Shown here piece by piece: positions 7,965 through 23,506 of a stretch of DNA of 64,000 bases; position 1 is the first letter of the stretch, and every line of letters begins with the position of its first letter. Location: positions 30,074 to 94,073 of the forward strand of contig JAGCTE010000037.1 of the NCBI GenBank assembly GCA_017963805.1. Direction: 5' to 3'. Origin of the DNA: a bacterium (GTDB lineage Bacteria; Auribacterota; UBA3054). The notes under the pieces were generated by a model that had not been told where the DNA came from, did not search any database, and saw only the letters and a list, made by a program, of their open reading frames with translations. A program made the translations under genes and the position numbers.

Positions 7965-7993
7965 TTTTTTCCTTAAAATTTGGAAATTTTTCC

Positions 7994-8030
7994 GACGCCC
8001 CGTTCGTATGTTCGAGCGGGGCGTTTTTTT
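7994..8030 (+). terminator. Rho-independent terminator of the kds-lpt operon
   Basis: The stem cgccccgttcg (7996-8006) pairs with cgagcggggcg (8013-8023), with one wobble. A T7 run follows at 8024-8030, about 30 nt after the lptB stop. Confidence 0.75.
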
Positions 8031-8038
8031 GCTAAAAT
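8030..8038 (+). promoter_or_regulatory. Candidate extended -10 promoter (TGCTAAAAT) for giant paralog A
   Basis: TGnTAnAAT-type element abutting the terminator T-run, ~43 nt upstream of the ATG at 8081, in an AT-rich gap. No clear -35. Confidence 0.35.
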
Positions 8039-8080
8039 ATAAATATATGTGTTTTATTTATAAAAATCTGGAAGCCTGAC

Positions 8081-11000
8081 ATGAAAAGATCATTCCTGCT
8101 TTTAATTTTCGCCGCGCTGACGCTGGCAGCCTGGGAGCGCGTCATAGACATTTCGCCGCGTGACACGCTTAAAGGCGACATCAGCGGAAACCAGGACGCC
8201 GATTTCGTCGACAATGTGAAAGCGCTCCGAATGGGGGACAAGCTCGTCATCAAGACTTCCTCGACGACCGCTCTCACGGGCACGGTCTCCTATTGCTACA
8301 TGGACGTCAACTTCGTGGAAGTGAGGGCGGGCTTCCTTGACGACAGGCTCGGCCATTTCCGCATGACCTGGGACGACGACGCAATGATGGGCAGAGTTTA
8401 CGATGCCCTTAAGCCGGAAAGCTACGATCTTTTGAAAAGATTCGGCAGACATCCCCTCAACATTGACTGCATGGACGTCGCCGCTTTCAAGAAAAAATAT
8501 CCCCTGAAGTGCGGCGTCAACGAAGGGGACGCCGAAATACACGCCTCCGCGGTCGACCAGAAGGACGATCCCAAGATCTGGGACGACGACGTCATGACGA
8601 CGCAGACCTTCCTCGTCATCTACACGAAGAACGCCAGCAAGAAATACGCGGAGCGCGGCGGCATAAACAATTTGATCGCCCAGGGCCTGGCGCTCGGAAA
8701 CCTCAGTTTGGAAAACAGCGGCGTGCCGACGAGGCTGGTGCTTGCCCACAGCGAAGCGGTGGATTACGTCAGCACCGGCAACGGAAGCACGGATCTCAGC
8801 GCTTTCGGCAGCAACAGGGGGCCTTTTAGCAACGTGAAATATCTGCAGTGCCACTACGGCGCCGACGTAAGGTCCATCGTTCCGGAAAACAGCAACTACG
8901 GCGGCCTGGCTTACGTGGCCTCCACGGCTTCCGGCATCAGCGACAGGGATCCCGCGCACATGATCAACGTGGACTACATGAGTTGGCACAGCTGGATCCA
9001 CGAGATCGGCCACAACATGGGCGGCCAGCACGCCATCGAGCAAAGCTACAGCGCCGGGCCTTCCAACGGCGGCCTTTTCGGGCATTCCGTCGGCAGCTTT
9101 TACACTTTGCGCGGCGACGACTCATATGGCAGCATCATGGCCTACGCCGGGCACAGGACGGACAATTTTTCGGACACCAACGCCTTCATAGAGAGTGTTC
9201 CTTTGGGCGTGGACGGCAGGCGCAACGTGGCCCGCACCTGGAAGAAGATCAGGAAATACGCCGCCAATTACCACGCCTTGGCCAAGCCTTCCAGAATACT
9301 GGCGGAGGAAAGCTTCCTGTACAAGCTTGACGATAGCCTTATGTGGCAGGAAGGCGGGACAGGCTGGTTCGAGCCCTGGTGGACCTGCTCCAACAAGGTC
9401 TACCAGATCTGTGGCGGCTTAAGCTATCCCGGGCTGCATTCCAGCGGCAGCGCCGTTATGATGGACGCCTGGACAAGCAACGCCATCTGGCGCTGCGGCG
9501 GCGACTATGAGCGGCGCGTTCCTTTCAACAAAGGCGGCAAATCAACTTTCTGGTTCTCCTGCCTTGTGAGCCGTCAGAACGACGACGACAATTATTTCGG
9601 CGTAGGCCTCGGCTCAAGGATCAGGATCGCGAAGAACGCCGGGACCGATCTTATCTACCTTAACAGCGCCGCGACCGGCCGCGCATTGGAGCCTTTTTCA
9701 ACCAACCTTTTCGTGGCGAAAGTCGATCTGTATCTCAACAAGGTATATTTCTGGATGGATCCCGCCCTTGATGCCGAACCGCAGCCCGATTCGGCTGACG
9801 CCAACGTTGCTTACAACATGACCGGCATCGCTTCCAACCGGGTGGTCATCGAAGGCAGGAAGGGAGCGAAGTTCATCGTTGACGAAGTCAGGCTCGGCAA
9901 AAGCTGGGAGGACGTGCTTATAAAACAGCATCCCCAGGATCCTTTGCTCGAGGAACGGGAGAATTCCCTTTGTTTCTCCTTTCTTGCCGCCGCCGGGGAA
10001 TACGACGTTTACAGAAGCGAAACGAAAGATTTTTCCGGCAGGACATATTTAAATACTGTTTCAACGGAAGGCGGAAGAGTTGTCCTTGACGACGACACGG
10101 CGGAAACGGGCAAGGTCTATTACTACATGGCCGCTCCTACAGACTCCGCGGAGGAAAGGCTTTTCACCATGCCGGTATCAGGGCTGCTCGGAAATCTAAA
10201 TCAGAGCGCGGACGCCGGCGGGCCTTACGTCGTTGGGCAGGGCGAGACCAACTATTTCGACGCCTCCGCATCCAAAGGCTGGATGCCGGCCTTCCGGTGG
10301 CAGCTTAGGGGAGTGCAGTCTCAGATGAAGACCAACAACATGGTCTACGCCTACACCGACACTTATGAACCCGGAACTTACGACGTGACTTTGATCATGC
10401 GCGACAGAAGGCGCCCTTACGACGGGGTTGTGACGAATTACACGACGCTTACCATAACAAACTCTTACCCGAAACTCAATGTCGCCCTGATCAACGGGAG
10501 TCTTATGGCGGGAAGGCCGCTCACTTTCCAGGCTTTCCCAAGCGACCCTGGCACCAACGACACATTCCTAGTCCGCTGGCGCCCCGAAGTGGACGGGGAA
10601 TGGACGGAATGGACTTCCGGCCTTTACTTTGTGCACCAATACCAGACTTCCGGCGAAAAGGTCCTGAAGTGCCAGGTCAGGGACAATTACGGAGCGGTGA
10701 CGGAAAAGGACTTGGATCTCGCTCTTGCCGAAGCCAGATCCATTCCCAGTTTCCCGACGAACGTTATCGTACCCGCTGGTTCGGACAGGGTCGGGCTTGA
10801 AATGAAAAATTTCGGGACTCTTCCTTACGATTATTCCGTGGCCGTTCCGGAAGAACAGCCTCTTTCGGTGGGGCCAATATCCGGCAGCGTCGGGCCTGAC
10901 GGCAGGACGTTGCTCGTAAAGGTCGATCCCGCCGCTCTTGGCAAGGCGGCGGAATACCGGTTCACTCTTACGGCCGACGGCAAAGAAGAGATCGTTAATG

Positions 11001-12628
11001 TCAGGACCCTGTCTTCCGACGCTTATCCTTTGCTGGCGCAGAGCGGCAATTTCACGCTCAACGAAGGCGACGTCCTCCGCCTCAACAACTTCGGCTCCAC
11101 GCCGGGCTATTCTTACAAATGGCTCCTCGACGGGGAGGAAGCGGCGGAAGGAGGCGTTTCCGAGATCGTTTCGGGAACCGACGGCGGAACGCATGTCTTG
11201 ACGCTCGCGGCCTATGACGGCGAGAACAGGCTTGCGGGCAGTTTGGAGACCAACGTCTTCGTTAATCCGCTCGTTTCGAGAGTCTATCTTGAGGAAGTTT
11301 CCCGCACGGAAAGAAGCGTGCGCTTAAGACCTGTTCTGGCGCCTTACAAAGAGGGGACGTCCATCAGGTTCAACTGGGACGAAGACATGGGCTGGACCAC
11401 CTGGCAGGCTGTTACCCCCGATTCGGAATTCGAACATGAATTCAGCGGCGGGGGAGACCGCCATATCCACTGCGAGATAAACCAGCGCGGGAGCGTGAAC
11501 GGCTCCTCTTTCATGTTCAGGCCGGAATTCAAGTTTGATCCCAAGCCTAAGATCAACGGAAGCGAAGACGCTTTCATAACGCTCTCGGCGGGCGAAAGCA
11601 TAGAGTTTGAAGGGGACGCTACCCTTGGGAATTACTGGCGCGAGGATCCCATGAATCCGGACGTCGGACTGATAGCCGACAAACTTGCCGCCGTCACCGC
11701 CTGCGGGCCCTTTGAGAAAGCCGGAACTTACTATTTCGCCTACTATGCTGGGAACGGCGAAGCGATCTCCGCTCCGAAAGTCCTTACGGTGGAAGTCGGG
11801 CTTCCTTCAAGGGAACTCGTTTCCTGGGACCTCAACGGCACGGTCACGACCAACACCATGTTCGGCTCCGGCCCCCTGGGAGGCTGCGCTCTTGCCGTTT
11901 CCACGGGGAACGAGATATACTGGATCACCAACAGCGCCTACGGTTCTTTTTCTTTCCCGAGCTTTTCCGGCGGAGACGCTCTAACGCTTAACATCACCCA
12001 TCCGGACCATTCTCCCTGCCTTACCAACATAAACGCGAACACGGGCTGCGCTTTCGCGTTGGAAAGGAGCTCCTCTTTCGGGTATCTCTATTTCAACTGC
12101 GTGGGAGAGCGTTCCAACCTTCCTTTGGAAGGCGTCGCGATAACCGTGGCCGGGCAGAAAGTGTTCACAAACAGCAAGGGGCGCTCGGCGGCCCTGGCGC
12201 TGCCCTTGGGCGATTATCTCGCGGAATTGAATTACCCCGGCATGGACCGCGTCATAACCAACGCGACGGTCGGTTCCAAGCCGGCAACGATCTCTGTTGC
12301 CATGAAAGGGCGTCAGTACGCGCTTTCCGGCATCGCTTACGGGACCGGAAACGAGATCGTGACGAACGCGCAGCTCCAGGTCCTCTCCAAGGAGACCATG
12401 AACATAGCCAAGCGCTACAATCTCGACGGCGCGCCGTTCTACGACGTGATCCTTGGCGAGACCTTAACGACGCTGCGCTTCCGCCCCTATGCATACGACA
12501 ATTTGAACATCGACATACAGCTTGAAAACAACTGGCACAAAGACACGGTTTTGACGCCGGAACCTTTATTGGCGCCGCTCCTCCTTTTTGCCATAGGCCT
12601 TATATATTTGAGAAACAAAAAAAGGTAA
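8081..12628 (+). CDS. Giant secreted metzincin-like / LamG-like / PKD-repeat protein with PEP-CTERM tail (paralog A, 1515 aa)
   Basis: - Signal peptide MKRSFLLLIFAALTLAAW.
- Exact HExxHxxGxxH zinc site (HEIGHNMGGQH), followed by YGSIMAY.
- LamG-like block ending VDEVRLGKSWEDV.
- PKD/Ig-like repeats (RWRPEVDGEWTEWTSGLYFVHQYQTSGEKVLKCQVRDNYGAVTE).
- C-terminal CarboxypepD_reg-like sandwiches.
- PEP-CTERM terminus. Confidence 0.7.
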   Translation: MKRSFLLLIFAALTLAAWERVIDISPRDTLKGDISGNQDADFVDNVKALRMGDKLVIKTSSTTALTGTVSYCYMDVNFVEVRAGFLDDRLGHFRMTWDDDAMMGRVYDALKPESYDLLKRFGRHPLNIDCMDVAAFKKKYPLKCGVNEGDAEIHASAVDQKDDPKIWDDDVMTTQTFLVIYTKNASKKYAERGGINNLIAQGLALGNLSLENSGVPTRLVLAHSEAVDYVSTGNGSTDLSAFGSNRGPFSNVKYLQCHYGADVRSIVPENSNYGGLAYVASTASGISDRDPAHMINVDYMSWHSWIHEIGHNMGGQHAIEQSYSAGPSNGGLFGHSVGSFYTLRGDDSYGSIMAYAGHRTDNFSDTNAFIESVPLGVDGRRNVARTWKKIRKYAANYHALAKPSRILAEESFLYKLDDSLMWQEGGTGWFEPWWTCSNKVYQICGGLSYPGLHSSGSAVMMDAWTSNAIWRCGGDYERRVPFNKGGKSTFWFSCLVSRQNDDDNYFGVGLGSRIRIAKNAGTDLIYLNSAATGRALEPFSTNLFVAKVDLYLNKVYFWMDPALDAEPQPDSADANVAYNMTGIASNRVVIEGRKGAKFIVDEVRLGKSWEDVLIKQHPQDPLLEERENSLCFSFLAAAGEYDVYRSETKDFSGRTYLNTVSTEGGRVVLDDDTAETGKVYYYMAAPTDSAEERLFTMPVSGLLGNLNQSADAGGPYVVGQGETNYFDASASKGWMPAFRWQLRGVQSQMKTNNMVYAYTDTYEPGTYDVTLIMRDRRRPYDGVVTNYTTLTITNSYPKLNVALINGSLMAGRPLTFQAFPSDPGTNDTFLVRWRPEVDGEWTEWTSGLYFVHQYQTSGEKVLKCQVRDNYGAVTEKDLDLALAEARSIPSFPTNVIVPAGSDRVGLEMKNFGTLPYDYSVAVPEEQPLSVGPISGSVGPDGRTLLVKVDPAALGKAAEYRFTLTADGKEEIVNVRTLSSDAYPLLAQSGNFTLNEGDVLRLNNFGSTPGYSYKWLLDGEEAAEGGVSEIVSGTDGGTHVLTLAAYDGENRLAGSLETNVFVNPLVSRVYLEEVSRTERSVRLRPVLAPYKEGTSIRFNWDEDMGWTTWQAVTPDSEFEHEFSGGGDRHIHCEINQRGSVNGSSFMFRPEFKFDPKPKINGSEDAFITLSAGESIEFEGDATLGNYWREDPMNPDVGLIADKLAAVTACGPFEKAGTYYFAYYAGNGEAISAPKVLTVEVGLPSRELVSWDLNGTVTTNTMFGSGPLGGCALAVSTGNEIYWITNSAYGSFSFPSFSGGDALTLNITHPDHSPCLTNINANTGCAFALERSSSFGYLYFNCVGERSNLPLEGVAITVAGQKVFTNSKGRSAALALPLGDYLAELNYPGMDRVITNATVGSKPATISVAMKGRQYALSGIAYGTGNEIVTNAQLQVLSKETMNIAKRYNLDGAPFYDVILGETLTTLRFRPYAYDNLNIDIQLENNWHKDTVLTPEPLLAPLLLFAIGLIYLRNKKR
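8999..9031 (+). other. Zinc-binding consensus HEIGHNMGGQH (paralog A, residues 307-317)
   Basis: Read directly from the DNA: cac gag atc ggc cac aac atg ggc ggc cag cac, in frame with 8081. Confidence 0.75.
12554..12625 (+). other. PEP-CTERM sorting signal of paralog A
   Basis: The terminal sequence TPEPLLAPLLLFAIGLIYLRNKKR has the PEP motif, a hydrophobic helix and a basic tail. Confidence 0.7.
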
Positions 12629-12632
12629 CATT

Positions 12633-15600
12633 ATGAAAAAACTCCTCCTGCTCACGGTCCTTATCGCTTGCTCTGCTTACTCAACTCCGCCTGAAAGCGA
12701 GAAAGGTCTCCTGGTGGTGGACTTCGAATCCGCCAGCGCGGCCAAGATCATGGGAACCGACGTCACGAAACTTCAGGACCCGGATTTTCCCGAACAGGTC
12801 AAAGCCCTGAAGTACAGGGATCAGATCATCTTCAAGACCGCCGAGGGGATTTTCACCGGCACGGTGGGCGTGGCTTACCGCGACGTCAACATGGTGGAAG
12901 TGAGAGCGGGCTATTTTCAGCCCCGCAACAACGGCTACAGGGAGATCTTCCACTTCACCTATGACCAGGACGCCCTGGTCGGCTGGATGGAGTACACCTA
13001 CGCGGCCAAGGAATACAACATCCTCTACACCAAGGCCAGCGGAAAACTGACGGCCTACAGCGAGGAGAGCCGCATGAAGCATTTCCGCTGCGGCAACGAG
13101 GACGGCGCGGCCCTCAGCGAGATGACGGAAGAGCAGAAGGCTGAGATCCACGCGAACTTTAACGTTCCGCAGCCGGCCACTTTCTACACCAACATCTGGG
13201 AAGTGCCGGAATACGTGACGCAGAATTACCTCATCTGCTATACCAAGGACGCCTACGAGTATTCCAAAAGGAAAGGCGGCATCAACCACCTCATGGCGCA
13301 CGGCATCGTCCACGGGACCTTGCTGCTTAGCAACAGCAATATCAAAGCCTGTCTGAGGCTGGGACACTCGCAGCTGCTTACGGATTATCCTGACAACCAC
13401 AATTCCGGCAAGAGCCTCGGCGACTTCAACGGCTACAGGAACGGCTGCCAGGACGCTTACGACATGCGCTGCCGCTACGGATGCGACATGGGTTCTATCG
13501 GCATCAAGCACGCCACCTACACCGGCCTTGCCAACGTCAACTATTCCATTACCGGCTCCGAATCCATTCCTTTCAACTGCATGGACTCCGACTTTTTGGG
13601 CGGCACCGGCTGGTGCCATGAGGACGGCCACACCATGGGCGGCCGCCACTACATCGACACCTACGCGGAAAACAACAGGAACAGCCTTTTCGACCATAGT
13701 TTCGGCTGTCACAACACTCCTCCCGGGGCGCCCAGGGAATACGGATCCGTCATGGCCCGTTCCGCCGGCCTTTTCAACTACTATTCTTCCACGAACATCT
13801 ACTATGACGGCGTGCCCATTTCCACCAACGCCAAATGCCGCGTGGCCGACACCTGGACGAAGATCAGGCGCTACGCCGCCAGGTACCGCTGCACTCCCGT
13901 CATTCCCGATGTGGATGGTTTGATCTGCAACGAAGAGTTCGAGTATCCAAGCGGCATGGGACTTATGTGGCAGGAAGGCGGCGAAGGCTTCTGCACGCCG
14001 TGGGAGAACAGCAACACCAACATTTTCCAGACCGTTTCCGACACCATGGAAAGACCGGGCTTCCACAGGGGCGGGGTGCTGAGGATCAACAACAACAACG
14101 CTGGCTCCGAATCGGTCAGGCGCTTTATTTTCTGGGGGCATAACATCAACGGCGACTATCACTACAGCAGGACTAATTTCTGGCTGAGGAGCACCCTGAA
14201 CATAAAGAATGAGAATTTGTTCTACATTTATTTGGGCAGTTTACCCATTCGATTCGGCGATGGCAGGATCAGGATCATAAACGGAAACACCGGCTTGACG
14301 TATGAATACGACAAGACTTTCAGCGTCCTGGTTCATTTCGAGATGGGTCCTGAGGACACCACGGTCAGCATTTGGAAAGATTACGCTGGAGAAAGCGCCC
14401 CGGATCCTTCCAGCGCCGGCTTTACCCTGGAAGTCAGCAACACCACTTATTTCGGCAACTACCGTTATCTCACGCTTTATTCCATGAACAACTTCCAGGG
14501 CGAACTGGATGATCTGAGGATGGGCTTCACTTACGAATCCCTTAATCCTCCTGAAAGGCCCATGGGCTTTACAATCGTTCCCGGAGGCTACACCAACGAT
14601 TACATCAGGATGGTCTGGCGCAACGTCACCGAGCCCGAAAGTTTCGAGATCTTGAGATCCACTGTCAACGACCTCGACACGGCGGTCTCCATAGCCACAT
14701 TAGAAGGCGGCACAGCCGGTTTCAAAGACGTTAACGTGGACGGCGGCGTCACGTATTACTACTGGCTGAGAGCCAATTATTCCGACCACGTCTTCACGAC
14801 GCTCGTGAGAAAAGGCGTCGCCGGCATTCCCGTCGACACGGTGGAAGCCAACGGCGAATACACCGTAGGCCAGGGGCAGATAGCGCACCTCACGGCCAAA
14901 GGCACCACGGGATACCTGCCCATGATCCGCTGGACGGTCGGAGCCTTCGACACGGTCTTCTTGACCAACCACTACGACTATGCCTTCAACGAAAGGATCA
15001 TCATGACGCCGGGCGATTACCCTGTTAAGATCGAAGTAACGGAGCAGGAGATCCAGACCGACATCCTTGAAGACACCACAGTGCTGCACGTCACCAACAG
15101 CTATCCGCACGTGACCTTCGAGTGCGAGACGGAGGAAAAGATGGCCGGCAAGCGTTTGATCTTCCATGCTTATCCCACCGACCCCGGCACCAACGACATC
15201 CTGACCGTCAGGTGGCGCTTCGCTCCCGAAAGCGAATGGAGCTCCTGGACCAACAGTTATTACTTCGCGCACACCTTCGCGGAAGCCGGCAGCTTCAAAG
15301 TAGAGTGCGAAGTCAAGGACGACTATGATGCGGTGACAAGAGAGGAGAGCACCATCGTGATCTCCGGCTCCAGCGCCATTCCTTTCTTCTCCAACAAGCT
15401 CACCATGAGCAACGGTCATTCGGCGGTCCTTGTTTTGGGCAACAAAGGCTCTTTGCCTTACGACTTCGAGATCGAGCCGCAAAGCACCCTTATTGGCGCT
15501 TATCCTTCACAGGGAACGGTCGGCGGCGAAGGCTCATATCAAACGATCCTTCTGACTTATGAGCACGACAAGACCAACGGCACAGCGGGCAGCTTTACCG

Positions 15601-17264
15601 TCAGGGTGAAAATAGGCGGCGAAAGTTACGACGTGAGATTGAACATTCCTTTCTCTCCCTGCCAGCTGACTTATCAGGGTCCCTTTTTGATCACGGGCGG
15701 ATACGAGGCGACTTTCTCGGATCTCGGCAGCCAGCCGGGCTACGTCCTGCGCTGGCTCATTGACGGCGAAGAGATCGGAGCAGCGCAGAAGGGTATGCTG
15801 CTCTCAGCCGCGCTTGACCTTAGCGAAGGCGAGCATGAGATCGTGACTCAGGCCATAAAGGAGACCGGAGACGTGGCGGCCTCCGTCACCAACACTATTT
15901 CCGCCCTGACGATCGATCCCGAAGTCTTCCTGGAAGAGATCAAAAGAGAGGGGACGACCGTCACGTATTCGCCCAGAACAGTCCTGCACGATCAAGGGGA
16001 AGCGGAAGTGCGCTTCAATTGGGACGAGGGCGTCGGCTGGACAGTCTGGCAGGCTCCTTCCGAGGTCACCCATACCTTCAAAGCCGACAGATCTTATCTG
16101 GTCCAGTGCCAAATCAGAGCCTACGGCAAAGAGAACGGCACCTCCACCCGCTTCGATCCTGTCGAAACGCTGAAGGCCGAGGCCAGCTTCGAGAACGGCG
16201 AAAAGGATCATTCCATCTCCCTTGGCGGCTCAGTGACCTTAAAAGCTGAAAAGGAGGGGGAAGCCGACATCGTTTGGAGAGAGAATTTCTCCAACCCGCA
16301 GCTCGGGCTCATAGAGGACCAATCAGCCTCCTCCTTCTCAGTGACGCCTGAAAAGCCGGGCCTTTACTGCTTCCTCTGCTACGCTCAGAACGATCGCGCC
16401 GTCAGTGCGCCTTCCGTCCTCACGCTCCGCGTCGATATGGCCGCGGAACCGAGCGACTTTTACGGCTCTCTTGCCGGCGTGGTCATAACCAACACCGTTT
16501 ACGGCTGCGACACCACGGGGGAATGCGTTTTGAGAGCGGTTGGCAAAAATTACTCCCTTGCCGTCTCCAACGAAGTGGACGGCACCTTTATCCTGGAAGG
16601 TCTGCCTTACGGCGAAGTGAAGCTTAGCCTTTCCAGCGACCGCTATGCCGGAGTCGTCTATGAGACCGTGATCACGAACGCGTCGCAAGTGGTGACAATG
16701 GTGGCGGAAGATCTTACGGGCAGCGGCATCGTTTACGCCCAGGTGTCCGACAAACGCTCCAAACTGCCCGTAAAGGGCGCTCTTGTTGCGGCAGGGTCGA
16801 AGACAGGCGTGACCACCGACAAGGGCCGTTCCACGGCTCTGACGCTGCCCTACGGCCAATATGTCATGACAGTTGAGATCCCGGGGCGCGACATCGTCGT
16901 TACCAACATCTCTCCTGACGTCAAAGCCAAGACCTTTGACGTCGTGAGCGAGGGATACTCTCCGTTTGTCCACGGCTTCCTTTACGGCACCGGCGGCGAG
17001 ACGGTAAGCTCCGGCACCATCCAGGTGCTTTCGGACATTACCAAGAACATCGTGGATCGCCACGCCATGAACGGATTACCGTTCTATTCCATAGGCCTTA
17101 CTCCTGGTCATCCCGTGACGCTGCGCTACCGCCTTGACAATTACGACAACGAGAACTTCAGCGTCAATTCGGGCAGCATCGTCGAGCACGACGCGATCCT
17201 TACTCCGGAACCGGCTTTAATCGCGCTTATTGCGCTGCTGCTTGCTTTGAAATGGCGAAGATAA
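12633..17264 (+). CDS. Giant secreted metzincin-like / LamG-like / PKD-repeat protein with PEP-CTERM tail (paralog B, 1543 aa)
   Basis: Starts 4 nt after the paralog A stop and is collinear with A and C. The signal peptide MKKLLLLTVLIACSAYS contains a possible lipobox (LIAC). The zinc site is HEDGHTMGGRH, followed by YGSVMAR. It also has a PKD-like repeat (RWRFAPESEWSSWTNSYYFAHTFAEAGSFKVECEVKDDYDAVT) and a terminal TPEPALIALIALLLALKWRR. Confidence 0.7.
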   Translation: MKKLLLLTVLIACSAYSTPPESEKGLLVVDFESASAAKIMGTDVTKLQDPDFPEQVKALKYRDQIIFKTAEGIFTGTVGVAYRDVNMVEVRAGYFQPRNNGYREIFHFTYDQDALVGWMEYTYAAKEYNILYTKASGKLTAYSEESRMKHFRCGNEDGAALSEMTEEQKAEIHANFNVPQPATFYTNIWEVPEYVTQNYLICYTKDAYEYSKRKGGINHLMAHGIVHGTLLLSNSNIKACLRLGHSQLLTDYPDNHNSGKSLGDFNGYRNGCQDAYDMRCRYGCDMGSIGIKHATYTGLANVNYSITGSESIPFNCMDSDFLGGTGWCHEDGHTMGGRHYIDTYAENNRNSLFDHSFGCHNTPPGAPREYGSVMARSAGLFNYYSSTNIYYDGVPISTNAKCRVADTWTKIRRYAARYRCTPVIPDVDGLICNEEFEYPSGMGLMWQEGGEGFCTPWENSNTNIFQTVSDTMERPGFHRGGVLRINNNNAGSESVRRFIFWGHNINGDYHYSRTNFWLRSTLNIKNENLFYIYLGSLPIRFGDGRIRIINGNTGLTYEYDKTFSVLVHFEMGPEDTTVSIWKDYAGESAPDPSSAGFTLEVSNTTYFGNYRYLTLYSMNNFQGELDDLRMGFTYESLNPPERPMGFTIVPGGYTNDYIRMVWRNVTEPESFEILRSTVNDLDTAVSIATLEGGTAGFKDVNVDGGVTYYYWLRANYSDHVFTTLVRKGVAGIPVDTVEANGEYTVGQGQIAHLTAKGTTGYLPMIRWTVGAFDTVFLTNHYDYAFNERIIMTPGDYPVKIEVTEQEIQTDILEDTTVLHVTNSYPHVTFECETEEKMAGKRLIFHAYPTDPGTNDILTVRWRFAPESEWSSWTNSYYFAHTFAEAGSFKVECEVKDDYDAVTREESTIVISGSSAIPFFSNKLTMSNGHSAVLVLGNKGSLPYDFEIEPQSTLIGAYPSQGTVGGEGSYQTILLTYEHDKTNGTAGSFTVRVKIGGESYDVRLNIPFSPCQLTYQGPFLITGGYEATFSDLGSQPGYVLRWLIDGEEIGAAQKGMLLSAALDLSEGEHEIVTQAIKETGDVAASVTNTISALTIDPEVFLEEIKREGTTVTYSPRTVLHDQGEAEVRFNWDEGVGWTVWQAPSEVTHTFKADRSYLVQCQIRAYGKENGTSTRFDPVETLKAEASFENGEKDHSISLGGSVTLKAEKEGEADIVWRENFSNPQLGLIEDQSASSFSVTPEKPGLYCFLCYAQNDRAVSAPSVLTLRVDMAAEPSDFYGSLAGVVITNTVYGCDTTGECVLRAVGKNYSLAVSNEVDGTFILEGLPYGEVKLSLSSDRYAGVVYETVITNASQVVTMVAEDLTGSGIVYAQVSDKRSKLPVKGALVAAGSKTGVTTDKGRSTALTLPYGQYVMTVEIPGRDIVVTNISPDVKAKTFDVVSEGYSPFVHGFLYGTGGETVSSGTIQVLSDITKNIVDRHAMNGLPFYSIGLTPGHPVTLRYRLDNYDNENFSVNSGSIVEHDAILTPEPALIALIALLLALKWRR
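13617..13649 (+). other. Zinc-binding consensus HEDGHTMGGRH (paralog B, residues 329-339)
   Basis: Read directly from the DNA: cat gag gac ggc cac acc atg ggc ggc cgc cac, in frame with 12633. Confidence 0.75.
17202..17261 (+). other. PEP-CTERM sorting signal of paralog B
   Basis: The terminal sequence is TPEPALIALIALLLALKWRR. The start codon of the next gene lies inside the KWRR codons. Confidence 0.7.
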
Positions 17265-18415
17265 ACATTTTCATACTGGCGCTCTTTGTTTCCGGCGCGC
17301 TTTTTGGAGGCGAACTTGACAGCCTCGCCACCTACGGCGAGGTGGAAGAGCATTTTAAAAAGCTTGGCTCCACCAACGCTTTTTACGAGGCGATGAACGT
17401 CATGAAGGCGCGGCATCCTTTCGATTTCTCGCCGGAATACAAAAAGGCGGTGGCGGCGCATTTCGCCGAGATAACAAACATCAACGCGAATGTCAAGCCA
17501 AGCTATCTCTACCGCACGCAGGCGCTGTTTGCCATGGCTTTCGGCCCCAAGAGGCTCTTTGCCAAAGAGCCTGCCGCGCTGAAAAAGAAACTGGACGGGA
17601 AAACGAGCTGGAAGGAGACCTACGCCCCCGTGTGGCTGAAAGTCGCAAAGGATGTGGAATCGCTGCCTTTGCCGGACGGAAGACACTGCGACGTCCTGCG
17701 TCAAAAGAAAGCAGGCGGCAAGGCGCTGCTCTTCTGCCACGGCGGCGGCATGATCCTTCCGCCCATGCTGCAGCACTGGGACTTGGCGCTCTACTTTCTC
17801 AAAAACGGGGAGAGGGATGTCTGGTTCCCGGACTACCCGTTGATCCCGGATACGGACATGTACCGCTCCACCACGACCTGCTTTGAAGCCTACAAGGAGA
17901 TGCTGAAGGTTTACAAGCCCGAGGATATCGCTTTCTTCGGCGATTCCGCCGGCTGCGCGCTTTGCCTTACGGTCTGTTTCAGGGCCAGGGACAACGGTCT
18001 CCCTCTGCCCAGCCGCCTCTTCCTCTTTTCTCCCGCGCACATCGACGTCAGCGAGGAGAACTGCAGGGAGGAGATGGATATCATCGCCCCTCTGGACATC
18101 CTGATACCGTTGCGGCTCATCGACAACTTGAACGTTTTCCTGCGTCCCGGGAAGGAAGCCGCTCACAACGAGTGCGACCCGTACCACGGGGAAATCGAAG
18201 GCTTCCCGCCCATGGACATCTTCACCGGCAGCAAGGAGGTCTTCTCCTCCCACGCCATCCGCTTCTACGAACTGGCGAAAAGGAAGGGGATAGACGCCAC
18301 GCTTAAGATCGGGAGATCGGTCATGCACGACTGGATCCTCATGCCCTTGGGCGAGGAGAGCCTGGAAGTGAGGAGAATGATAGCCGAAAAACTTAAGAAT
18401 GATAAAATTAAATAA
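17252..18415 (+). CDS. Secreted alpha/beta hydrolase, hormone-sensitive-lipase (family IV) type esterase
   Basis: HGGG oxyanion motif (LLFCHGGGMILP) and GDSAG nucleophile elbow (FFGDSAGCAL). Signal peptide MAKINIFILALFVSGALFGGE. 13-nt overlap with the end of paralog B. Confidence 0.75.
   Translation: MAKINIFILALFVSGALFGGELDSLATYGEVEEHFKKLGSTNAFYEAMNVMKARHPFDFSPEYKKAVAAHFAEITNINANVKPSYLYRTQALFAMAFGPKRLFAKEPAALKKKLDGKTSWKETYAPVWLKVAKDVESLPLPDGRHCDVLRQKKAGGKALLFCHGGGMILPPMLQHWDLALYFLKNGERDVWFPDYPLIPDTDMYRSTTTCFEAYKEMLKVYKPEDIAFFGDSAGCALCLTVCFRARDNGLPLPSRLFLFSPAHIDVSEENCREEMDIIAPLDILIPLRLIDNLNVFLRPGKEAAHNECDPYHGEIEGFPPMDIFTGSKEVFSSHAIRFYELAKRKGIDATLKIGRSVMHDWILMPLGEESLEVRRMIAEKLKNDKIK
18400..18408 (+). 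promoter_or_regulatory. Candidate internal extended -10 promoter (TGATAAAAT) ahead of paralog C
   Basis: TGnTAAAAT sits inside the last codons of the esterase gene, ~32 nt upstream of the ATG at 18440. An AT-rich (AAATAAATAAATAA) spacer and an AGGATA RBS follow. Confidence 0.3.
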
Positions 18416-18439
18416 ATAAATAACCACATAGGATAGATC

Positions 18440-21400
18440 ATGAAAAAAGCACTTCTGCTTTGTTCGCTCGCGGCTGTTTTCACCGCGGTTTCTTTCGCCA
18501 CCCCGCCGAAGGATATTCTGACCGTCGACCTCACATGTCAGGAGCCGCCAACCATAACGGGCGGCTATGAAAGGGACATCACCAAGCTCCAACCCAGCGA
18601 TCTGCCGGAGCAGATCGAAGCGCTGGAAGTGGGGGACACCATTTTCTTCAATTCCCCGGACGGCGTTTTCACCGGCAAATGCACGGTCGCCTACCGCGAC
18701 ATCAACCTTGTGGAAGTCAGAGCCGGCTATTTCCAGCCCCGCATGAACGGCTACAACGAGATCTGGCGCTTCACGTTCGACCAGGACCAGATGCTAGGGC
18801 AGGTTGACTACACCTACCTCAACCACGAATACGCCATACTCTACAGCGACAGGACGAAAAGGCTGACGGCGCTCGAACCGCCCAAAAGGAGCTTCACCTG
18901 CGGCGGCTGCGACGGACCCATCGACGACGTTATCGCTAGGGACGGCGTGAGGCAGATAATGGACAAAATGGAAGCCGAGCAATACTACACCAACGACTGG
19001 CGGTGCGACGAATACGTCACTCAGAACTACATGATCGTCTACACTAAGGAGGCTTTGGAAGAGGCGAAGTCCCGGGGCGGCATCAACAACGTCATGGCCC
19101 AGGGCATCGTTTTGGGAACGCTTATCCTAAGCAACAGCCACGTGAGGTCGTGCTTCAACCTCGTGCATTCCCAGCTCGTCGATTATCCCAACCCGGTGGG
19201 CGAGATCTGCAATTCCAGCCTCGCGCTCAGCAGCCTGTGCAACTCCAGGAACGGGCTTGAGCAGATCGAGCAGCTGAGAGCCCGCTACGGCGCCGACATG
19301 TGCTCGATCGCCGTTCTGATGCCGACCTACACCGGCCTTGCCTACGTGTCTGGCGGCGTGGCCGGCAGCGAGAGCTCCGCCAACAACTGCATGGACGTGA
19401 ACTTCGTCAACACCACCGGCTGGATCCACGAGGACGGCCACAACATGGGCGGCCAGCACTACGACGAGACCGGAACGAGCAGCGGCGGACTCTTCGGCCA
19501 CAGCCACGGCTGCCACAACACGCCTCCCGGGGCGCCCATGGAGTACGGTTCGGTCCTGGCCAGATCCAACGGCATTTTCAACTATTTCAGCTCCACCAAC
19601 ATTTTCTACGACGGAGTGCCGATCTCCACGAACCTGAAGTGCCAGGTGGCGCTGACCTGGGAGAAGACCAGGCGCTACGCCGCGCGCTACCGCTCCGTCC
19701 CTTACCACGCCGCGGGAGACATGCTTCTGCACGAGAGCTTCAATTACCCGATCGGCAGCGGCTTGATGTTCAAGGAAGGCGGCTGCGGCTTCGCTTCGCC
19801 CTGGTACGCCTGCCTTTCCAACATTTTCTACATTCAGGACCGGGATCTCGGCGACGAACAAGCCATGCATGAAGGCGGAAGCCTAAGGATCTGCAACGAG
19901 GGTTCCGAGACGGCCACCACCAGGCGCTTCATCAACTGGATGGATTATTCTCCCGCCTCTCTTACCACGCTCGCCGGCCATGACCTCTGGCTTTCCGTCT
20001 GGGCCGACATGGACGAAGAGGGCGGCTCTTACGGCTACGGCGGTTTCAGGCTCGGCGGTTCCTACGAAGCCTTCACCTTCTACAGGGACGGCACGATCAA
20101 CACGTTCGATTTCGGCACCGGCTACAAGCACACCTTCGGAACGCCCGCCCACTACCTGGTCCGCTGCACGATAACGACCAACGAGACCGGCTACGCCTAC
20201 ACTGACGTCTACATGTGGGTCAACCCGGATATGACGACGGAACCCGATGATTCCGACGCGGTCTTCCACAAGTACGGCTACTCTTACTGGGGCTCCGGTT
20301 TCTCCAGTCTGTATCTCTACGCGCCCTCCGGCTTCAAGATGACCTTCGACGAATTCTGCCTGGGCTACACCTTCGATTCAATCAAGAACAGGGCCGTGCC
20401 TTACGGTTTCGTCTGCCTGAACGGCGACGACAAGATAAAGTTGCGCTGGCGCAACACCTCGAAAGGGGACGTCTCATTGTGGCGCAACACCGTGGAAGAC
20501 CTCGCCACGGCCGTCAAGATAAGGGAAGGGGACAGCACCTTCCAGGCTTACGACGACGCGGACGCCGTCCCGGGCCAGACTTACTTCTACTGGCTGACCG
20601 GCGACTTCCCGACTCCGGAACCCAGAAAGGGCGTCAGGGGCATTCCCGACGTCAGCGCGGAATGTAACGGCGAATACGTGATCGGTCAGGGCCAGGCGGC
20701 GCATCTTTCCGCGGAAGGCAGCAAAGGCTATTTCCCGGCCGTGCGCTGGATCGTCGGCAACGACATGACGCTTTTCTCAACAAACTTCTATTACTACGAC
20801 TACAAAGAGGACCAGATCTATTGGCCGGGCGATTACAATGTGGAGGTGAGGGTGACGGACCGTCAGTTCAAGACCGCCGTCTGCACCAACTACACCATGC
20901 TGCATGTCACCAATGCGTACCCGCACGTCGCCATCTGGAGCGAAGCGAGAACGAGAATGGTCGACGTGCCTCAGATCTTCACCGCCGATCCCAAAGACCC
21001 CGGCATCCACGACACGCTTGACATCCGCTGGGATTTCGGCGACGGCGGCGGCTTCTCCGACTGGACGAACTATTACTTCGCCAGGCACACTTACGAAGCG
21101 AGCGGAACGTACACCGTCAAGTGCCAGGTCAAAGACAATTACGGCGCCTGGACGGAAACGACTCTGCCTTACGTCATCGACGCTTCCGAAGCGCGCCCCG
21201 TGGTCCCGGCGACCCTTACGCTGGAAAACGGCCGCAGCGGCGTTTTGCTTCTCTCCAACCTCGGCTCCGTTCCCTGCGATTACGTCATCAGGAATTCCTT
21301 CGATTCCCTTAAATTCGCGCCCGTCAGGGGCACGATAGATCCCACCGCTTCCGGATCCGTCCCGGTGGCCGTGTGGATCGATCCCCTTAAGACCGGCGGA

Positions 21401-23101
21401 ATGGCCAAGAACTTCAACGTCAAGGTCGCGATAGGGGATACGGAATACGACTTGGTCGTAAGCACTCCCGCCATCACAGACCACGTCGTCGATCCCAACG
21501 GCCCGTACGTGGCGCACCGCGGCTCGAAAGTGACGCTTGACGGCACCGGCACCATGGGCGGATACCGCTACAAGTGGCTAGTCGACGGGGAAGCGGTTGG
21601 CGAAGCCAGCGCCAGCTTCATGGAGACTATCACGGCCGATTACGGCGTGGGCGAACATACGCTGACGCTGAGGCTGGAGAAGGGGACGGGCGCCGTTTTG
21701 GCCACCACCAACACGACGCTGACCATCATTGACAACAATCCTAACGTCTACCTTGCGGAGACCGCTTCGCTTGGCACTACCGTGACGTACGAGCCCACAG
21801 TTGTGCCGCAAGACAGGGAAGGGCTGCAGGTCCGCTACAACTGGGACAACGGAGCCGGCTGGACGATCTGGCAGGACCTTGGCCCCGTGGAGCACACCTT
21901 CGAGAAAGACAGGCCCTATTACGTGCAGTGCCAGATCAAGGACGAAAACGGCAACATGAACAGCACGGCCTTGTATTACGACGGCAACAAGCCGCTCTCA
22001 GTCAGCGCGGCCTTCCCGGACAACACCCAGGATTACACCTGCTATTCCGGCAAGCCCGTAACCATCAAGACCAGCTTCCTCTTGGGCAAGAGAGTCCTGT
22101 GGCGCCAGGATCCCTACAATCCCGTAAGGAACATCCTCAGCGCCTCGGAAGGCAGCGAGATCACCTGCTCCACCGCGGTGCCGGGCGTTTATTACATCGC
22201 TGTCTACGCCGCGGACGACGAATTCGTGAGCTCGCCGAAGATCCTGAAGCTGACGGTATTGAAGTTCGAACCGGTTCTCCCCGAGAACCACGTGATCTCC
22301 GGCGTCGTCTGCACCAACACGTATTTCGGCAGCGGATTCCTTGGCGGCGGGCTTGTGAGAGCGGTGGGCGACGGGTTCGCCTTCGCGGTCTCCAACAGGG
22401 CGGACGGCACCTTCATCTTCGACGCCGTGCCGGCTGGCAAAGTTTACCTTTCCTTCTCCCACGACGAATTCGAAGGCAGGATCGCAGAAGTGGTTTTGAC
22501 CAATTCCGCCAAGTGCGTGGTCTTCGATACGGAAGCCACCGGTAAGCACGGCTTCGTCTACGCCGGCGTGGCGGACGACAACTCCAACTTCCCCCTGGTG
22601 GACGCCGAGGCGCAGATCGCCAACTTCAAGTCGACCGTCACATCCGCCGGCCGCACCACCGCCTTCACGCTGCCTTACGGCGAATACATCATGACCGTAA
22701 GGTACGGCGAAAGGACGCAGTATGTGACGAACGTGACCTCCTCGACCGGCACGCCGACCATACCTGTCAGGATGACGGGCTACAGCCCCTACGTTTCCGG
22801 CTTTTTGTACGGCACCGGCTGCGAGATAGTCACCAACGCCCAGATCCAGGTGGTCAACGCCAAGACGCAGAACATCGTTCAGCGCCACAACATGAACGGG
22901 CTGCCTTTCTTCGACATCTACCTCGGGCTCGATCAGACGGCCGTCCTGAGGGTCAGGCCGGTCGATTACGACAACCAGAACTATACCGTGACGACGGAAG
23001 GAAGTTTCTACAAGGATTTTGTCCTGACGCCGGAACCGGCTTCTTTTATGTTCTTTATTCTGGCGCTCATGGCATTCTTGCGCCGTAACCAAAAATGTTA
23101 A
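18440..23101 (+). CDS. Giant secreted metzincin-like / LamG-like / PKD-repeat protein with PEP-CTERM tail (paralog C, 1553 aa)
   Basis: Signal peptide MKKALLLCSLAAVFTAVSFA. Zinc site HEDGHNMGGQH, followed by YGSVLAR. Textbook PKD signature: WDFGDG at 21029-21046, then ..HTYEASGTYTVKCQVKDNYG. Terminal TPEPASFMFFILALMAFLRRNQKC. Most similar to paralog B. Confidence 0.72.
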   Translation: MKKALLLCSLAAVFTAVSFATPPKDILTVDLTCQEPPTITGGYERDITKLQPSDLPEQIEALEVGDTIFFNSPDGVFTGKCTVAYRDINLVEVRAGYFQPRMNGYNEIWRFTFDQDQMLGQVDYTYLNHEYAILYSDRTKRLTALEPPKRSFTCGGCDGPIDDVIARDGVRQIMDKMEAEQYYTNDWRCDEYVTQNYMIVYTKEALEEAKSRGGINNVMAQGIVLGTLILSNSHVRSCFNLVHSQLVDYPNPVGEICNSSLALSSLCNSRNGLEQIEQLRARYGADMCSIAVLMPTYTGLAYVSGGVAGSESSANNCMDVNFVNTTGWIHEDGHNMGGQHYDETGTSSGGLFGHSHGCHNTPPGAPMEYGSVLARSNGIFNYFSSTNIFYDGVPISTNLKCQVALTWEKTRRYAARYRSVPYHAAGDMLLHESFNYPIGSGLMFKEGGCGFASPWYACLSNIFYIQDRDLGDEQAMHEGGSLRICNEGSETATTRRFINWMDYSPASLTTLAGHDLWLSVWADMDEEGGSYGYGGFRLGGSYEAFTFYRDGTINTFDFGTGYKHTFGTPAHYLVRCTITTNETGYAYTDVYMWVNPDMTTEPDDSDAVFHKYGYSYWGSGFSSLYLYAPSGFKMTFDEFCLGYTFDSIKNRAVPYGFVCLNGDDKIKLRWRNTSKGDVSLWRNTVEDLATAVKIREGDSTFQAYDDADAVPGQTYFYWLTGDFPTPEPRKGVRGIPDVSAECNGEYVIGQGQAAHLSAEGSKGYFPAVRWIVGNDMTLFSTNFYYYDYKEDQIYWPGDYNVEVRVTDRQFKTAVCTNYTMLHVTNAYPHVAIWSEARTRMVDVPQIFTADPKDPGIHDTLDIRWDFGDGGGFSDWTNYYFARHTYEASGTYTVKCQVKDNYGAWTETTLPYVIDASEARPVVPATLTLENGRSGVLLLSNLGSVPCDYVIRNSFDSLKFAPVRGTIDPTASGSVPVAVWIDPLKTGGMAKNFNVKVAIGDTEYDLVVSTPAITDHVVDPNGPYVAHRGSKVTLDGTGTMGGYRYKWLVDGEAVGEASASFMETITADYGVGEHTLTLRLEKGTGAVLATTNTTLTIIDNNPNVYLAETASLGTTVTYEPTVVPQDREGLQVRYNWDNGAGWTIWQDLGPVEHTFEKDRPYYVQCQIKDENGNMNSTALYYDGNKPLSVSAAFPDNTQDYTCYSGKPVTIKTSFLLGKRVLWRQDPYNPVRNILSASEGSEITCSTAVPGVYYIAVYAADDEFVSSPKILKLTVLKFEPVLPENHVISGVVCTNTYFGSGFLGGGLVRAVGDGFAFAVSNRADGTFIFDAVPAGKVYLSFSHDEFEGRIAEVVLTNSAKCVVFDTEATGKHGFVYAGVADDNSNFPLVDAEAQIANFKSTVTSAGRTTAFTLPYGEYIMTVRYGERTQYVTNVTSSTGTPTIPVRMTGYSPYVSGFLYGTGCEIVTNAQIQVVNAKTQNIVQRHNMNGLPFFDIYLGLDQTAVLRVRPVDYDNQNYTVTTEGSFYKDFVLTPEPASFMFFILALMAFLRRNQKC
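19427..19459 (+). other. Zinc-binding consensus HEDGHNMGGQH (paralog C, residues 330-340)
   Basis: Read directly from the DNA: cac gag gac ggc cac aac atg ggc ggc cag cac, in frame with 18440. Confidence 0.75.
23027..23098 (+). other. PEP-CTERM sorting signal of paralog C
   Basis: The terminal sequence TPEPASFMFFILALMAFLRRNQKC has the PEP motif, a hydrophobic helix and a basic tail. Confidence 0.7.
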
Positions 23102-23110
23102 GGATCATTT

Positions 23111-23506
23111 ATGGCTCTTTCCGCAATCGCTTCCTACAACGGCGACCTTAAGTGCACCGCCAAATTGGCGGGCTCCCAAACTTCCATCGAGACCGACGCC
23201 AAGGGGACGCCGGGCGTCTTTTCGCCGACCGACGTGCTGTCCGCCGCACTGGCCTCCTGCACGGCCAGCATGATCGGCTTCGTGGCCGCCCAGCAGAAAC
23301 TGGACATGACCGGCCTTTCGGTGGAAGTAGGGAAAGAGATGCAGCAGTCTCCCGCTTCCGTAAAGACTTTCAAAGTGAAAGTCGTTTTCCCCAAGATCGC
23401 CCTTGACGATCCCATGAAGAAAAGGCTGGAGGGCGCGGCCAAAGCCTGCCCGGTGAAGAACAGCCTCAATCCGTCAATCGAAATAATTACCGAATTTGTC
23501 TACTAA
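23111..23506 (+). CDS. OsmC/Ohr-family protein (peroxiredoxin-like)
   Basis: 131 aa. SPTDVLSAALASCTASMIGFVA and AAKACPVKNSL blocks, with the two conserved Cys spaced as in the OsmC family. Confidence 0.8.
   Translation: MALSAIASYNGDLKCTAKLAGSQTSIETDAKGTPGVFSPTDVLSAALASCTASMIGFVAAQQKLDMTGLSVEVGKEMQQSPASVKTFKVKVVFPKIALDDPMKKRLEGAAKACPVKNSLNPSIEIITEFVY

Follow-up and report, generated by a model that had tools for sequence, protein, structure and literature searches.

The window analysed here, a stretch of 64,000 nucleotides (nt) from contig JAGCTE010000037.1 of an uncultured rumen bacterium of the lineage UBA3054 (of which we know no cultured member), carries on its plus strand three very large open reading frames (ORFs): A (8081-12628, 1515 amino acids (aa)), B (12633-17264, 1543 aa) and C (18440-23101, 1553 aa). 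The three predicted products share one architecture, in which a signal peptide, a prodomain and a metzincin catalytic domain are followed by a beta-rich domain of unassigned family, an Fn3-like domain, a PKD/Ig stalk, three C-terminal beta-sandwich-like domains and a PEP-CTERM tail. We consider it probable that they are anciently diverged cell-envelope zinc metalloprotease paralogs of about 1,500 aa, anchored at the surface on a stalk and produced from the same transcription unit as a secreted esterase and an OsmC-like protein. The coordinates and lengths are those given in the initial annotation of this DNA. The tandem triplication that it described stands as regards the three paralogs but not as a strict tandem array, as the gene of a 387-aa esterase separates B from C; likewise, the 14 kb said to be filled by the family corresponds to the metzincin coding sequence (~13.8 kb), while the span including the esterase is 15 kb.

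That the three proteins are collinear paralogs, as had been claimed, was borne out by the pairwise identity comparison: each pair aligns end to end (BLASTP E = 0, a similarity far above chance), with global identities of 31% for A-B, 31% for A-C and 42% for B-C. The idea that the copies arose by recent stepwise duplication, that B and C share long and nearly identical DNA and that the copies may recombine with each other fared worse. The 56-nt stretch cited for it (12890-12945 versus 18700-18755) matches at 47 of 56 positions, 84% at best. The best extended DNA repeat between B and C covers 205 nt at 77% identity, and the longest exact match is 18 nt between B and C and 18-25 nt between any two copies. 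A search of ~5.8 billion protein clusters with C retrieved 14 clusters, all of them A, B or C orthologs, named only 'hypothetical protein' and originating from unclassified 'bacterium' records. When one genome per GTDB species was scanned, eight loci were found, in metagenome-assembled genomes from the gut of sheep, goats, yaks and water buffaloes (RGIG isolates; 'bacterium UBP3_UBA3054'), and the order A-B-esterase-C-OsmC-membrane protein-membrane/TPR protein is kept in them as far as each contig reaches. UBA3054, formerly named UBP3, is a GTDB phylum-level lineage with ~15 genomes, which come from a hydrothermal vent as well as from rumen and digesters; the name 'Ca. Hicupiota' has been proposed for it, and alternatively it is included in Auribacterota, in the PVC superphylum (PMC11382960, PMC12057145).

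Each of the window's proteins has its own ortholog in other species, at 72-92% identity and in the same order, and the three copies were therefore already separate genes before the eight examined species diverged; the duplications are old. The short conserved DNA stretches near the active site and in the prodomain are what remains in favour of a recent triplication with recombining, near-identical copies. Against it stand the amino-acid identities of 31-42%, the lack of any exact match above 25 nt, the species-wide orthology and the fact that the divergent stalk alleles described below were not copied from the paralogs. Recent duplication and gene conversion between paralogs were thus rejected on identities, synteny and stalk comparison, and we regard a recent origin of the triplication as extremely improbable.

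A fourth, more distant paralog type, collinear with the three and 23-26% identical to A-C, is represented by the proteins P0017 (1613 aa) and P0016 (1627 aa) and has no copy in the window. P0017 is encoded at 10001-15895 of locus L017, which belongs to a close relative, 9 kb downstream of a C-OsmC cluster whose C ortholog is 86% identical to that of the window, and P0016 lies in the same context at 7567-13503 of locus L015. Both are directly followed by exbB-exbD and preceded by a protein of 615-626 aa without a Pfam match. In the B ortholog of locus L001 (isolate RGIG7086), codon 1105 is an in-frame TGA (3939-3941 of L001), where the window has AGA; this could reflect a pseudogene or an assembly error.

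The catalytic domain of A was assigned to residues 165-402 (8573-9286, plus strand) from Pfam matches, a sequence profile and structural comparison. In the Pfam search it scored 36.4 bits with Reprolysin_5 (cut-off 27) and 31.3 bits with Reprolysin_3 (cut-off 22.4). The zinc-binding motif HExxHxxGxxH noted in the initial annotation is exact in each copy, being HEIGHNMGGQH in A (8999-9031), HEDGHTMGGRH in B (13617-13649) and HEDGHNMGGQH in C (19427-19459), and none of its His, Glu, Gly, His, Gly and His varies among 13 family members. The other shared blocks quoted there (VEVRAGF/Y, TQxF/Y..YTK....GGIN, TWxKxRxYAAxY and LM(W/F)xEGG) are also present. The only NCBIfam match was to NF052434 (Mep72), at 52.5 bits for A and 44.2 bits for C and absent for B; it is limited to the metzincin part, positions 5-194 of the 573 in the profile, and falls far from the equivalog cut-off of 645.

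A word-indexed homolog search with a profile of the head returned one protein only, and an exhaustive search was needed. HMMER with this profile against 1.84 billion representative sequences yielded 6,673 proteins at E <= 0.001, 2,625 of them at E <= 1e-10, and nearly all match only profile positions ~185-415, that is, the catalytic domain. Where relatives were checked, the motif was present in 138 of 139, and the N-terminal domain was matched as well in 24 of the 139; the names that relatives bear in their sources include peptidyl-Asp metalloendopeptidase, M12 family metallopeptidase and zinc-dependent metalloprotease, names that bear only indirectly on the choice between the MEROPS families M12B and M72.

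The head profile built from nine family sequences found no match among PDB sequences. A catalytic-domain profile of 22 sequences, combining the window's three copies with 19 distant relatives, matched leucurolysin-A (1.3e-8), trimerelysin II, CpaA (1.7e-6), adamalysin II, serralysins, fragilysin and myroilysin. An AlphaFold model of A residues 21-620, calculated from a 92-sequence alignment, had a mean predicted local distance difference test score (pLDDT) of 73, with most of the catalytic domain at 84-96; the nine-sequence alignment had given a mean of 29.8. Foldseek comparison of this model with the PDB returned CpaA (6o38, 4e-10), profragilysin-3 (2e-8, 384 columns) and zymogen ADAM17 (5e-6, 477 columns), followed by dozens of adamalysins and ADAMs, and the probability assigned to CpaA, fragilysin, ADAM17 and adamalysin II was 1.00. 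Together, the Pfam, profile and fold matches show the catalytic domain of A to be an adamalysin-like metzincin, the fold for which the initial annotation had argued, and the heads of B and C are shown to be of the same type through their homology to A (36-42% identity in the domain).

As judged from their sequence, the N-termini MKRSFLLLIFAALTLAA (A), MKKLLLLTVLIACSAYS (B) and MKKALLLCSLAAVFTAVSFA (C), with a basic start and a hydrophobic core, are predicted signal peptides of the Sec type. The next ~130 residues, the domain with the 'VEVRAGF/Y' block, are in A (residues 21-150; 8141-8530, plus strand) modelled at pLDDT 78-93. The Foldseek alignments to profragilysin and zymogen ADAM17 are long, with 345-477 columns spanning both this region and the catalytic domain, and they show the region to be a prodomain. 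It is separated from the catalytic domain by a stretch with a Cys-Gly pair, Cys144-Gly145 of A in 'PLKCGVNEG' (8510-8515), with counterparts in 'FRCGNEDG' of B (13089-13094) and 'FTCGGCDG' of C (18899-18904). The Cys and the Gly are invariant in 13 sequences, and 'ECGV'-type motifs occupy the equivalent place in 23 of 223 wider relatives. The 'KCGV' of A resembles PKMCGV, the motif of the cysteine switch in ADAMs and in snake-venom enzymes, and by this analogy the invariant pair probably blocks the zinc as a candidate cysteine switch.

The catalytic domain is followed in A by a beta-rich domain of unassigned family (residues 406-612; 9296-9916, plus strand) with about 11 predicted strands. The end motif reported for this block is present in all copies (VDEVRLG, LDDLRMG and FDEFCLG), while the LamG-like identity proposed for it found no support: there is no Pfam match at E <= 10 for the block in A, B, C, P0016 or P0017, and its eight-sequence profile retrieved nothing relevant from the PDB. 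The LamG/Laminin_G_3 label was dropped on these grounds. In the AlphaFold model the block is all-beta at low to moderate confidence, with pLDDT below 50 at A 399-485 and 55-88 beyond.

The stalk of A (9932-11806, plus strand) consists of an Fn3-like domain (residues 618-703) and about six PKD/Ig-like domains (704-1242), assigned from PKD_4 and profile matches to the PDB. The PKD domains that had been proposed exceed the Pfam cut-offs in all three proteins (PKD_4 31.3 bits versus 27 in A; PKD 38.9 versus 23.5 in B and 46.7 versus 23.5 in C). The WDFGDG...GTYTVKCQVKDNYG stretch attributed to C is there, and so is the (F/Y)NWD block, as one R(F/Y)NWD per protein; the domain that bears 'RFNWD' can be recognised as a repeat of the main PKD domain. 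Positions 14-93 of the stalk profile matched the Fn3 domain of pectate lyase PelI and an Fn3-like protein, positions 102-273 two tandem PKD domains of the collagenase ColH (3.3e-7), positions 292-353 an Ig-like domain of FAP47, positions 378-457 a phage decoration Ig domain and positions 564-631 a KIAA PKD domain. Three beta-sandwich-like modules complete this part of A (residues 1250-1490; 11828-12550, plus strand). Their similarity to CarboxypepD_reg, which the initial annotation had named, is weak, the PF13620 scores of 18.9, 23.8 and 14.5 bits all lying under the cut-off of 32.3, and the profile of the C-terminal region matched only NOMO2 in the PDB (E = 0.054).

The C-termini TPEPLLAPLLLFAIGLIYLRNKKR (A), TPEPALIALIALLLALKWRR (B) and TPEPASFMFFILALMAFLRRNQKC (C) consist, as had been noted, of LTPEP, 14-17 hydrophobic residues and Arg/Lys. 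These PEP-CTERM-type tails occupy 12551-12625 (LTPEPLLAPLLLFAIGLIYLRNKKR), 17199-17261 and 23024-23098, respectively, all on the plus strand, and the window has three proteins that bear them. LTPEP is invariant in 13 family members, while the flanks are only 31-49% identical between paralogs. The tail of A scores 18.5 bits with TIGR02595 (cut-off 16); the tail scores were obtained with the isolated C-terminal 31-35 residues, and scans of the full-length proteins did not list these models. Outside the three orthologous groups, P0016, P0017 and P0018 (a protein with the same head and a different body) also end in PEP, a helix and basic residues, and the tail of P0018 reaches 20.1 bits on PF07589, just under the cut-off of 20.7.

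Tails of this kind are also found on unrelated proteins of the clade. An unrelated 1191-aa LTD/CotH/CHB_HEX_C protein with a PEP-CTERM-type tail is inserted at this locus in L001 (6382-9957), an unrelated 444-aa GLUG protein, whose tail scores 16.0 bits on PF07589 (below 20.7), is found at this locus in L008 (7472-8806), and a 482-aa LTD protein with a PEP-CTERM-type tail adjoins P0018 at 731-2179 of L016. Tagged surface proteins accumulate at this locus as at a hotspot. The region upstream of A contains kdsB, kdsA, kdsD, kdsC, lptC, lptA and lptB, and an OmpA-family gene, GT4 glycosyltransferases, polysaccharide flippases (Polysacc_synt) and a UDP-glucose dehydrogenase are also nearby; the host therefore has an outer membrane with lipopolysaccharide (LPS). 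According to Haft (2006), PEP-CTERM is a tag borne by many proteins of one genome; all organisms with it are reported to have an outer membrane and polysaccharide synthesis, and PF07589 misses many of the true cases (PMC1569441). The tails of A-C, the tagged neighbours and the LPS and polysaccharide genes fit this description.

The three heads are not equivalent in their active sites. Among 257 aligned relatives the Met of the Met-turn is present in 241 and a Tyr two residues on in 236, and the third position of HExxH is mostly Leu, Ile or Met. In A both the Met and the Tyr are kept ('YGSIMAYAG', 9125-9151) and the motif is HEIGH. In B ('YGSVMARSA', 13740-13766) the Met is kept and the Tyr is replaced by Arg, while in the window's C ('YGSVLARSN', 19544-19570) the Met has become Leu and the Tyr Arg, so that the conserved Met-turn is lost. 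The Met to Leu change is found in P0002 as well, and the C orthologs P0001 and P0003 retain Met. In every B and C ortholog, Arg stands in place of the Tyr and the third residue of the motif is Asp (HEDGH). Given these shared derived changes, B and C probably differ from A in specificity or activity. The changes are conserved within the branch, and in every copy conservation is highest in the catalytic domain (92-98% ortholog identity, nonsynonymous divergence (dN) 0.005-0.03); B and C are therefore under constraint and not decaying.

In the scheme that we favour, each paralog would be exported via its N-terminal signal peptide, as read from the sequence, and made as a zymogen whose ~130-aa prodomain, by modelling, resembles those of profragilysin and ADAM17, with the Cys-Gly pair probably blocking the zinc. 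The adamalysin-like metzincin domain would be the cleaving part, followed by the beta-rich domain of ~210 aa, and the Fn3-like domain, the ~six PKD/Ig-like domains and the three beta-sandwich-like modules would together form a long spacer. An exosortase would cut the LTPEP, helix and basic tail and leave the protein attached to the cell surface or within the layer of exopolysaccharide, where the stalk may hold the protease head off the cell, past the LPS and polysaccharide layer. The likely role of the system would be the breakdown of extracellular protein or glycoprotein for nutrients.

A number of observations weigh against this scheme, the first of them concerning the catalytic head. C falls below the Pfam cut-offs (Reprolysin_5 24.6 versus 27, Reprolysin_3 18.5 versus 22.4), B has no Reprolysin match in Pfam at E <= 0.1, and the catalytic competence of B and C is uncertain, as in both the near-universal Tyr, present in 236 of 257 relatives, has given way to Arg and in the window's C the Met present in 241 of them is lost as well. 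Together with the Asp of the HEDGH motif, and with the fact that long PKD/Ig stalks are common in adhesins, this would be compatible with some or all of the copies, especially B and C, being non-catalytic surface adhesins in which the head is re-used for binding on an Ig-like stalk. The three zinc His, the catalytic Glu and the Gly are, however, invariant in all B and C orthologs, the pronounced conservation of the catalytic domain fits a constrained active enzyme, and A retains every canonical residue; we therefore consider the adhesin explanation unlikely. As to latency, the segment just past the switch Cys is modelled with pLDDT below 50, and the cysteine switch is to be taken as a lead, drawn from a resemblance of motifs.

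The remaining objections concern the anchoring and the function. With TIGR02595, B (13.5 bits) and C (15.1 bits) fall below the cut-off, so that the PEP-CTERM assignment made in the initial annotation passes this threshold in one copy of the three, A; with PF07589 all three fall below it (A 14.7, B 18.7 and C 19.3 bits, cut-off 20.7). Among the ORFs of the 64-kb window scanned with Pfam or NCBIfam, 30 further ones included, there was no exosortase, nor was one present among the called genes in the 10 kb past each window end, ~84 kb being covered in total. The substrate and the physiological role are pure inference on our part. The tail scores and the lack of an exosortase in these ~84 kb leave room for another arrangement, in which the tail is cleaved and the protease released, or in which, for want of an exosortase, the helix keeps the protein on the periplasmic face of the inner membrane. 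The fate of cleaved PEP-CTERM proteins is only partly known (PMC1569441, PMC12188702), and Mep72, a related protease, undergoes release and processing once it has been secreted (PMC4334185). On the other side, LTPEP has remained invariant across paralogs of 31-42% identity and in relatives at ~25% identity, several unrelated proteins of the clade bear the same kind of tail, and a stalk of ~900 residues would make little sense for a released or periplasmic enzyme. A lack of surface anchoring thus appears rather improbable, and we retain the surface-anchored protease as the preferred interpretation.

The heads and the stalks of the orthologs differ strongly in their conservation. The heads are 89-100% identical, while identity in the Ig3-PKD6 part of the stalk falls to 39-52% in some pairs, for example 42% between P0010 and P0012 with heads at 99%, and 48% between B and P0005 with heads at 97%. 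The regions 10727-11806 (A), 15363-16442 (B) and 21179-22267 (C) were compared with L004, L007, P0003, P0005 and P0010; divergence between B and L001 was taken from an ungapped comparison, the L001 gene having the in-frame stop. Between B and L004, synonymous divergence (dS) rises from 0.20-0.36 in the head to 1.57 in the stalk, and between C and L007 from 0.40-0.66 to 1.25. The stalk exceeds the head 3-5 times in synonymous divergence. As the increase affects synonymous positions too, heads and stalks probably had differing histories, and the pattern suggests that stalk segments have been exchanged with divergent alleles and not only released from constraint. The divergent stalks are ~30% identical to the other paralogs, no closer than expected, and were therefore not copied from them. 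We tentatively raise the possibility, to which we give rather limited credence, that the three proteases (four in some relatives) make up a surface system that combines a conserved head with exchangeable, fast-diverging stalk alleles, and in which the B/C branch could be a metzincin subtype with an altered catalytic mechanism or substrate class. If this were true, the swapping of stalks between strains could let cells escape phages or predators that recognise these abundant surface proteins.

Among characterised proteins, CpaA of Acinetobacter baumannii (PDB 6o38; PMC6299215, PMC7542363) comes closest in structure to the model of A and ranks third among the PDB matches of the sequence profile. 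Like A-C, this glycan-specific, adamalysin-like enzyme is a metzincin secreted by a bacterium, and it has both the HExxHxxGxxH motif and extra non-catalytic domains. In contrast to A-C, CpaA has 578 aa and is set free by type II secretion, for which it has its own chaperone, its accessory domains are N-terminal of the catalytic domain (the match covers 371-536 of 578), and it possesses neither a PKD stalk nor a PEP-CTERM tail; the structure-based identity between A and CpaA is ~14%. Mep72 of Pseudomonas aeruginosa (NF052434; PMC4334185) likewise carries non-catalytic domains behind a metzincin head and undergoes processing after export. It differs from A-C in its length of 599 aa, two carbohydrate-binding modules, type II secretion, the co-expressed inhibitor BamI and the lack of PEP-CTERM. 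As their scores miss the cut-off of 645 more than tenfold, A-C are not Mep72 orthologs, and no BamI-like gene was evident at the locus, no search aimed at BamI having been made.

The adamalysin/reprolysin (M12B) enzymes resemble A-C in the profile match to leucurolysin-A, which extends over 170 of 247 positions, and in the Reprolysin_3 and Reprolysin_5 matches of A and, below the cut-offs, of C. Snake-venom P-I enzymes align to the model of A with Foldseek TM-scores of 0.55-0.68 (target-normalised), and zymogen ADAM17 shares with A the arrangement of prodomain and catalytic domain. The Tyr after the Met-turn of A is known from astacins and serralysins rather than from adamalysins. Unlike the M12B enzymes, A-C are bacterial, have no disintegrin or Cys-rich domains and carry other downstream domains and another means of anchoring. 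Profragilysin, the zymogen of the Bacteroides fragilis toxin (BFT), likewise comes from the gut and aligns with A over 345-423 columns (E = 2e-8 to 5e-7, TM-score 0.50-0.58). BFT, in contrast, has ~400 aa without stalk or anchor, is a toxin acting on host E-cadherin, and is kept latent by an aspartate switch and not by Cys.

The bacterial Reprolysin_3/4/5 proteases have the catalytic domain in common with A-C (E = 1e-24 to 1e-35); they are multi-domain and secreted, and some share the prodomain. Their C-termini, unlike those of A-C, mostly look like type IX secretion signals or dockerin-type ends, and only the narrow rumen clade with P0016, P0017 and P0018 combines this head with a PEP-CTERM-type tail. 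Known substrates of the PEP-CTERM/exosortase system, among them PepA of floc formers (PMC9850573) and those of cyanoexosortase B (PMC12188702), resemble A-C in that several occur per genome, in a setting of outer membrane and polysaccharide genes (PMC1569441). Typical PEP-CTERM proteins have little homology to known proteins (Haft, PMC1569441), whereas the passenger in A-C is a recognisable enzyme, and the cognate exosortase was not found in the ~84 kb examined. A-C are orthologs of none of the closest characterised proteins (CpaA, Mep72, the adamalysins and ADAMs, profragilysin), from which they also differ in size, stalk and tail, and we found no characterised protein with the full architecture of head, stalk and PEP-CTERM tail. 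The combination is thus uncharacterised and confined to a narrow clade, with components that are familiar; its novelty is much smaller than the initial annotation implied, as the catalytic domain occurs in thousands of bacterial secreted proteases with lineage-specific sorting tails.

The genes of the locus, all on the plus strand, are closely packed. Downstream of lptB there is a terminator-like hairpin (7994-8025) with a 13-bp stem and a T run, followed by an AT-rich leader of 55 nt ahead of A, and we take a separate transcription unit to begin at A for this reason. The esterase/lipase of 387 aa (17252-18415) is of the hormone-sensitive-lipase (HSL) type (Abhydrolase_3; PF07859 80.6 bits; NCBIfam HSL subfamilies); its gene overlaps the 3' end of B by 13 nt, its N-terminus is signal-peptide-like, and its position between B and C is kept in L001, L002, L004, L007 and L008. 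The OsmC-like gene (23111-23506, 131 aa; PF02566 60.4 bits) starts 9 nt past C, keeps its position in all loci and is the final gene ahead of the next strong terminator-like hairpin (23528-23554; a stem of 11 pairs, of which 10 are G-C, with a T run behind it). Within A-B-esterase-C-OsmC, neighbouring genes either overlap or are separated by 4 to 24 nt. With the flanking terminator-like hairpins and this tight or overlapping spacing, 8081-23506 looks like a single transcription unit, into which the esterase and the OsmC-like protein are packed with the three proteases in conserved synteny.

Two multi-pass membrane proteins are encoded directly downstream (23496-24941 and 24931-26412), also in conserved positions. 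The first, of 481 aa, has no Pfam, NCBIfam or PDB match and is unusually divergent, with 45-80% identity between relatives. It was weighed as a divergent exosortase and set aside, nothing in these searches backing that assignment. The second has a C-terminal TPR region, and its matches arise only via the TPR repeats. A role of these two proteins in glycosylation or sorting is possible. Elsewhere in the window, sizeable ORFs without a significant Pfam or NCBIfam match are found at 37787-39682, 55858-57930, 27506-28171 and 42742-43410 on the minus strand and at 125-1645 on the plus strand, as may be expected for a poorly studied lineage; only for 55858-57930 (690 aa) did public assemblies confirm a called gene. 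At and past the right end of the window, at 59815-61566 (minus strand) and at 3612-11752 of L009, lies a cluster for a [FeFe]-hydrogenase-like complex, with Fe_hyd_lg_C, NADH-dehydrogenase 51K-like and 2Fe-2S thioredoxin-like subunits and small HATPase_c/DRTGG/PHP proteins.

These findings overturn nothing in the current understanding, and the proteins form an uncharacterised but fairly ordinary family of surface enzymes, assembled from parts of known type. Few PEP-CTERM proteins have a known function, and a protease passenger with an easy assay could serve to report exosortase-dependent sorting. The differences between the active sites of A and of B and C, and the pattern of conserved heads and variable stalks, lend themselves naturally to studies of metzincin specificity and of the evolution of surface proteins. 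From the point of view of the organism, the three paralogs are a testable candidate for the way in which the little-known rumen lineage UBA3054 attacks extracellular protein or glycoprotein.

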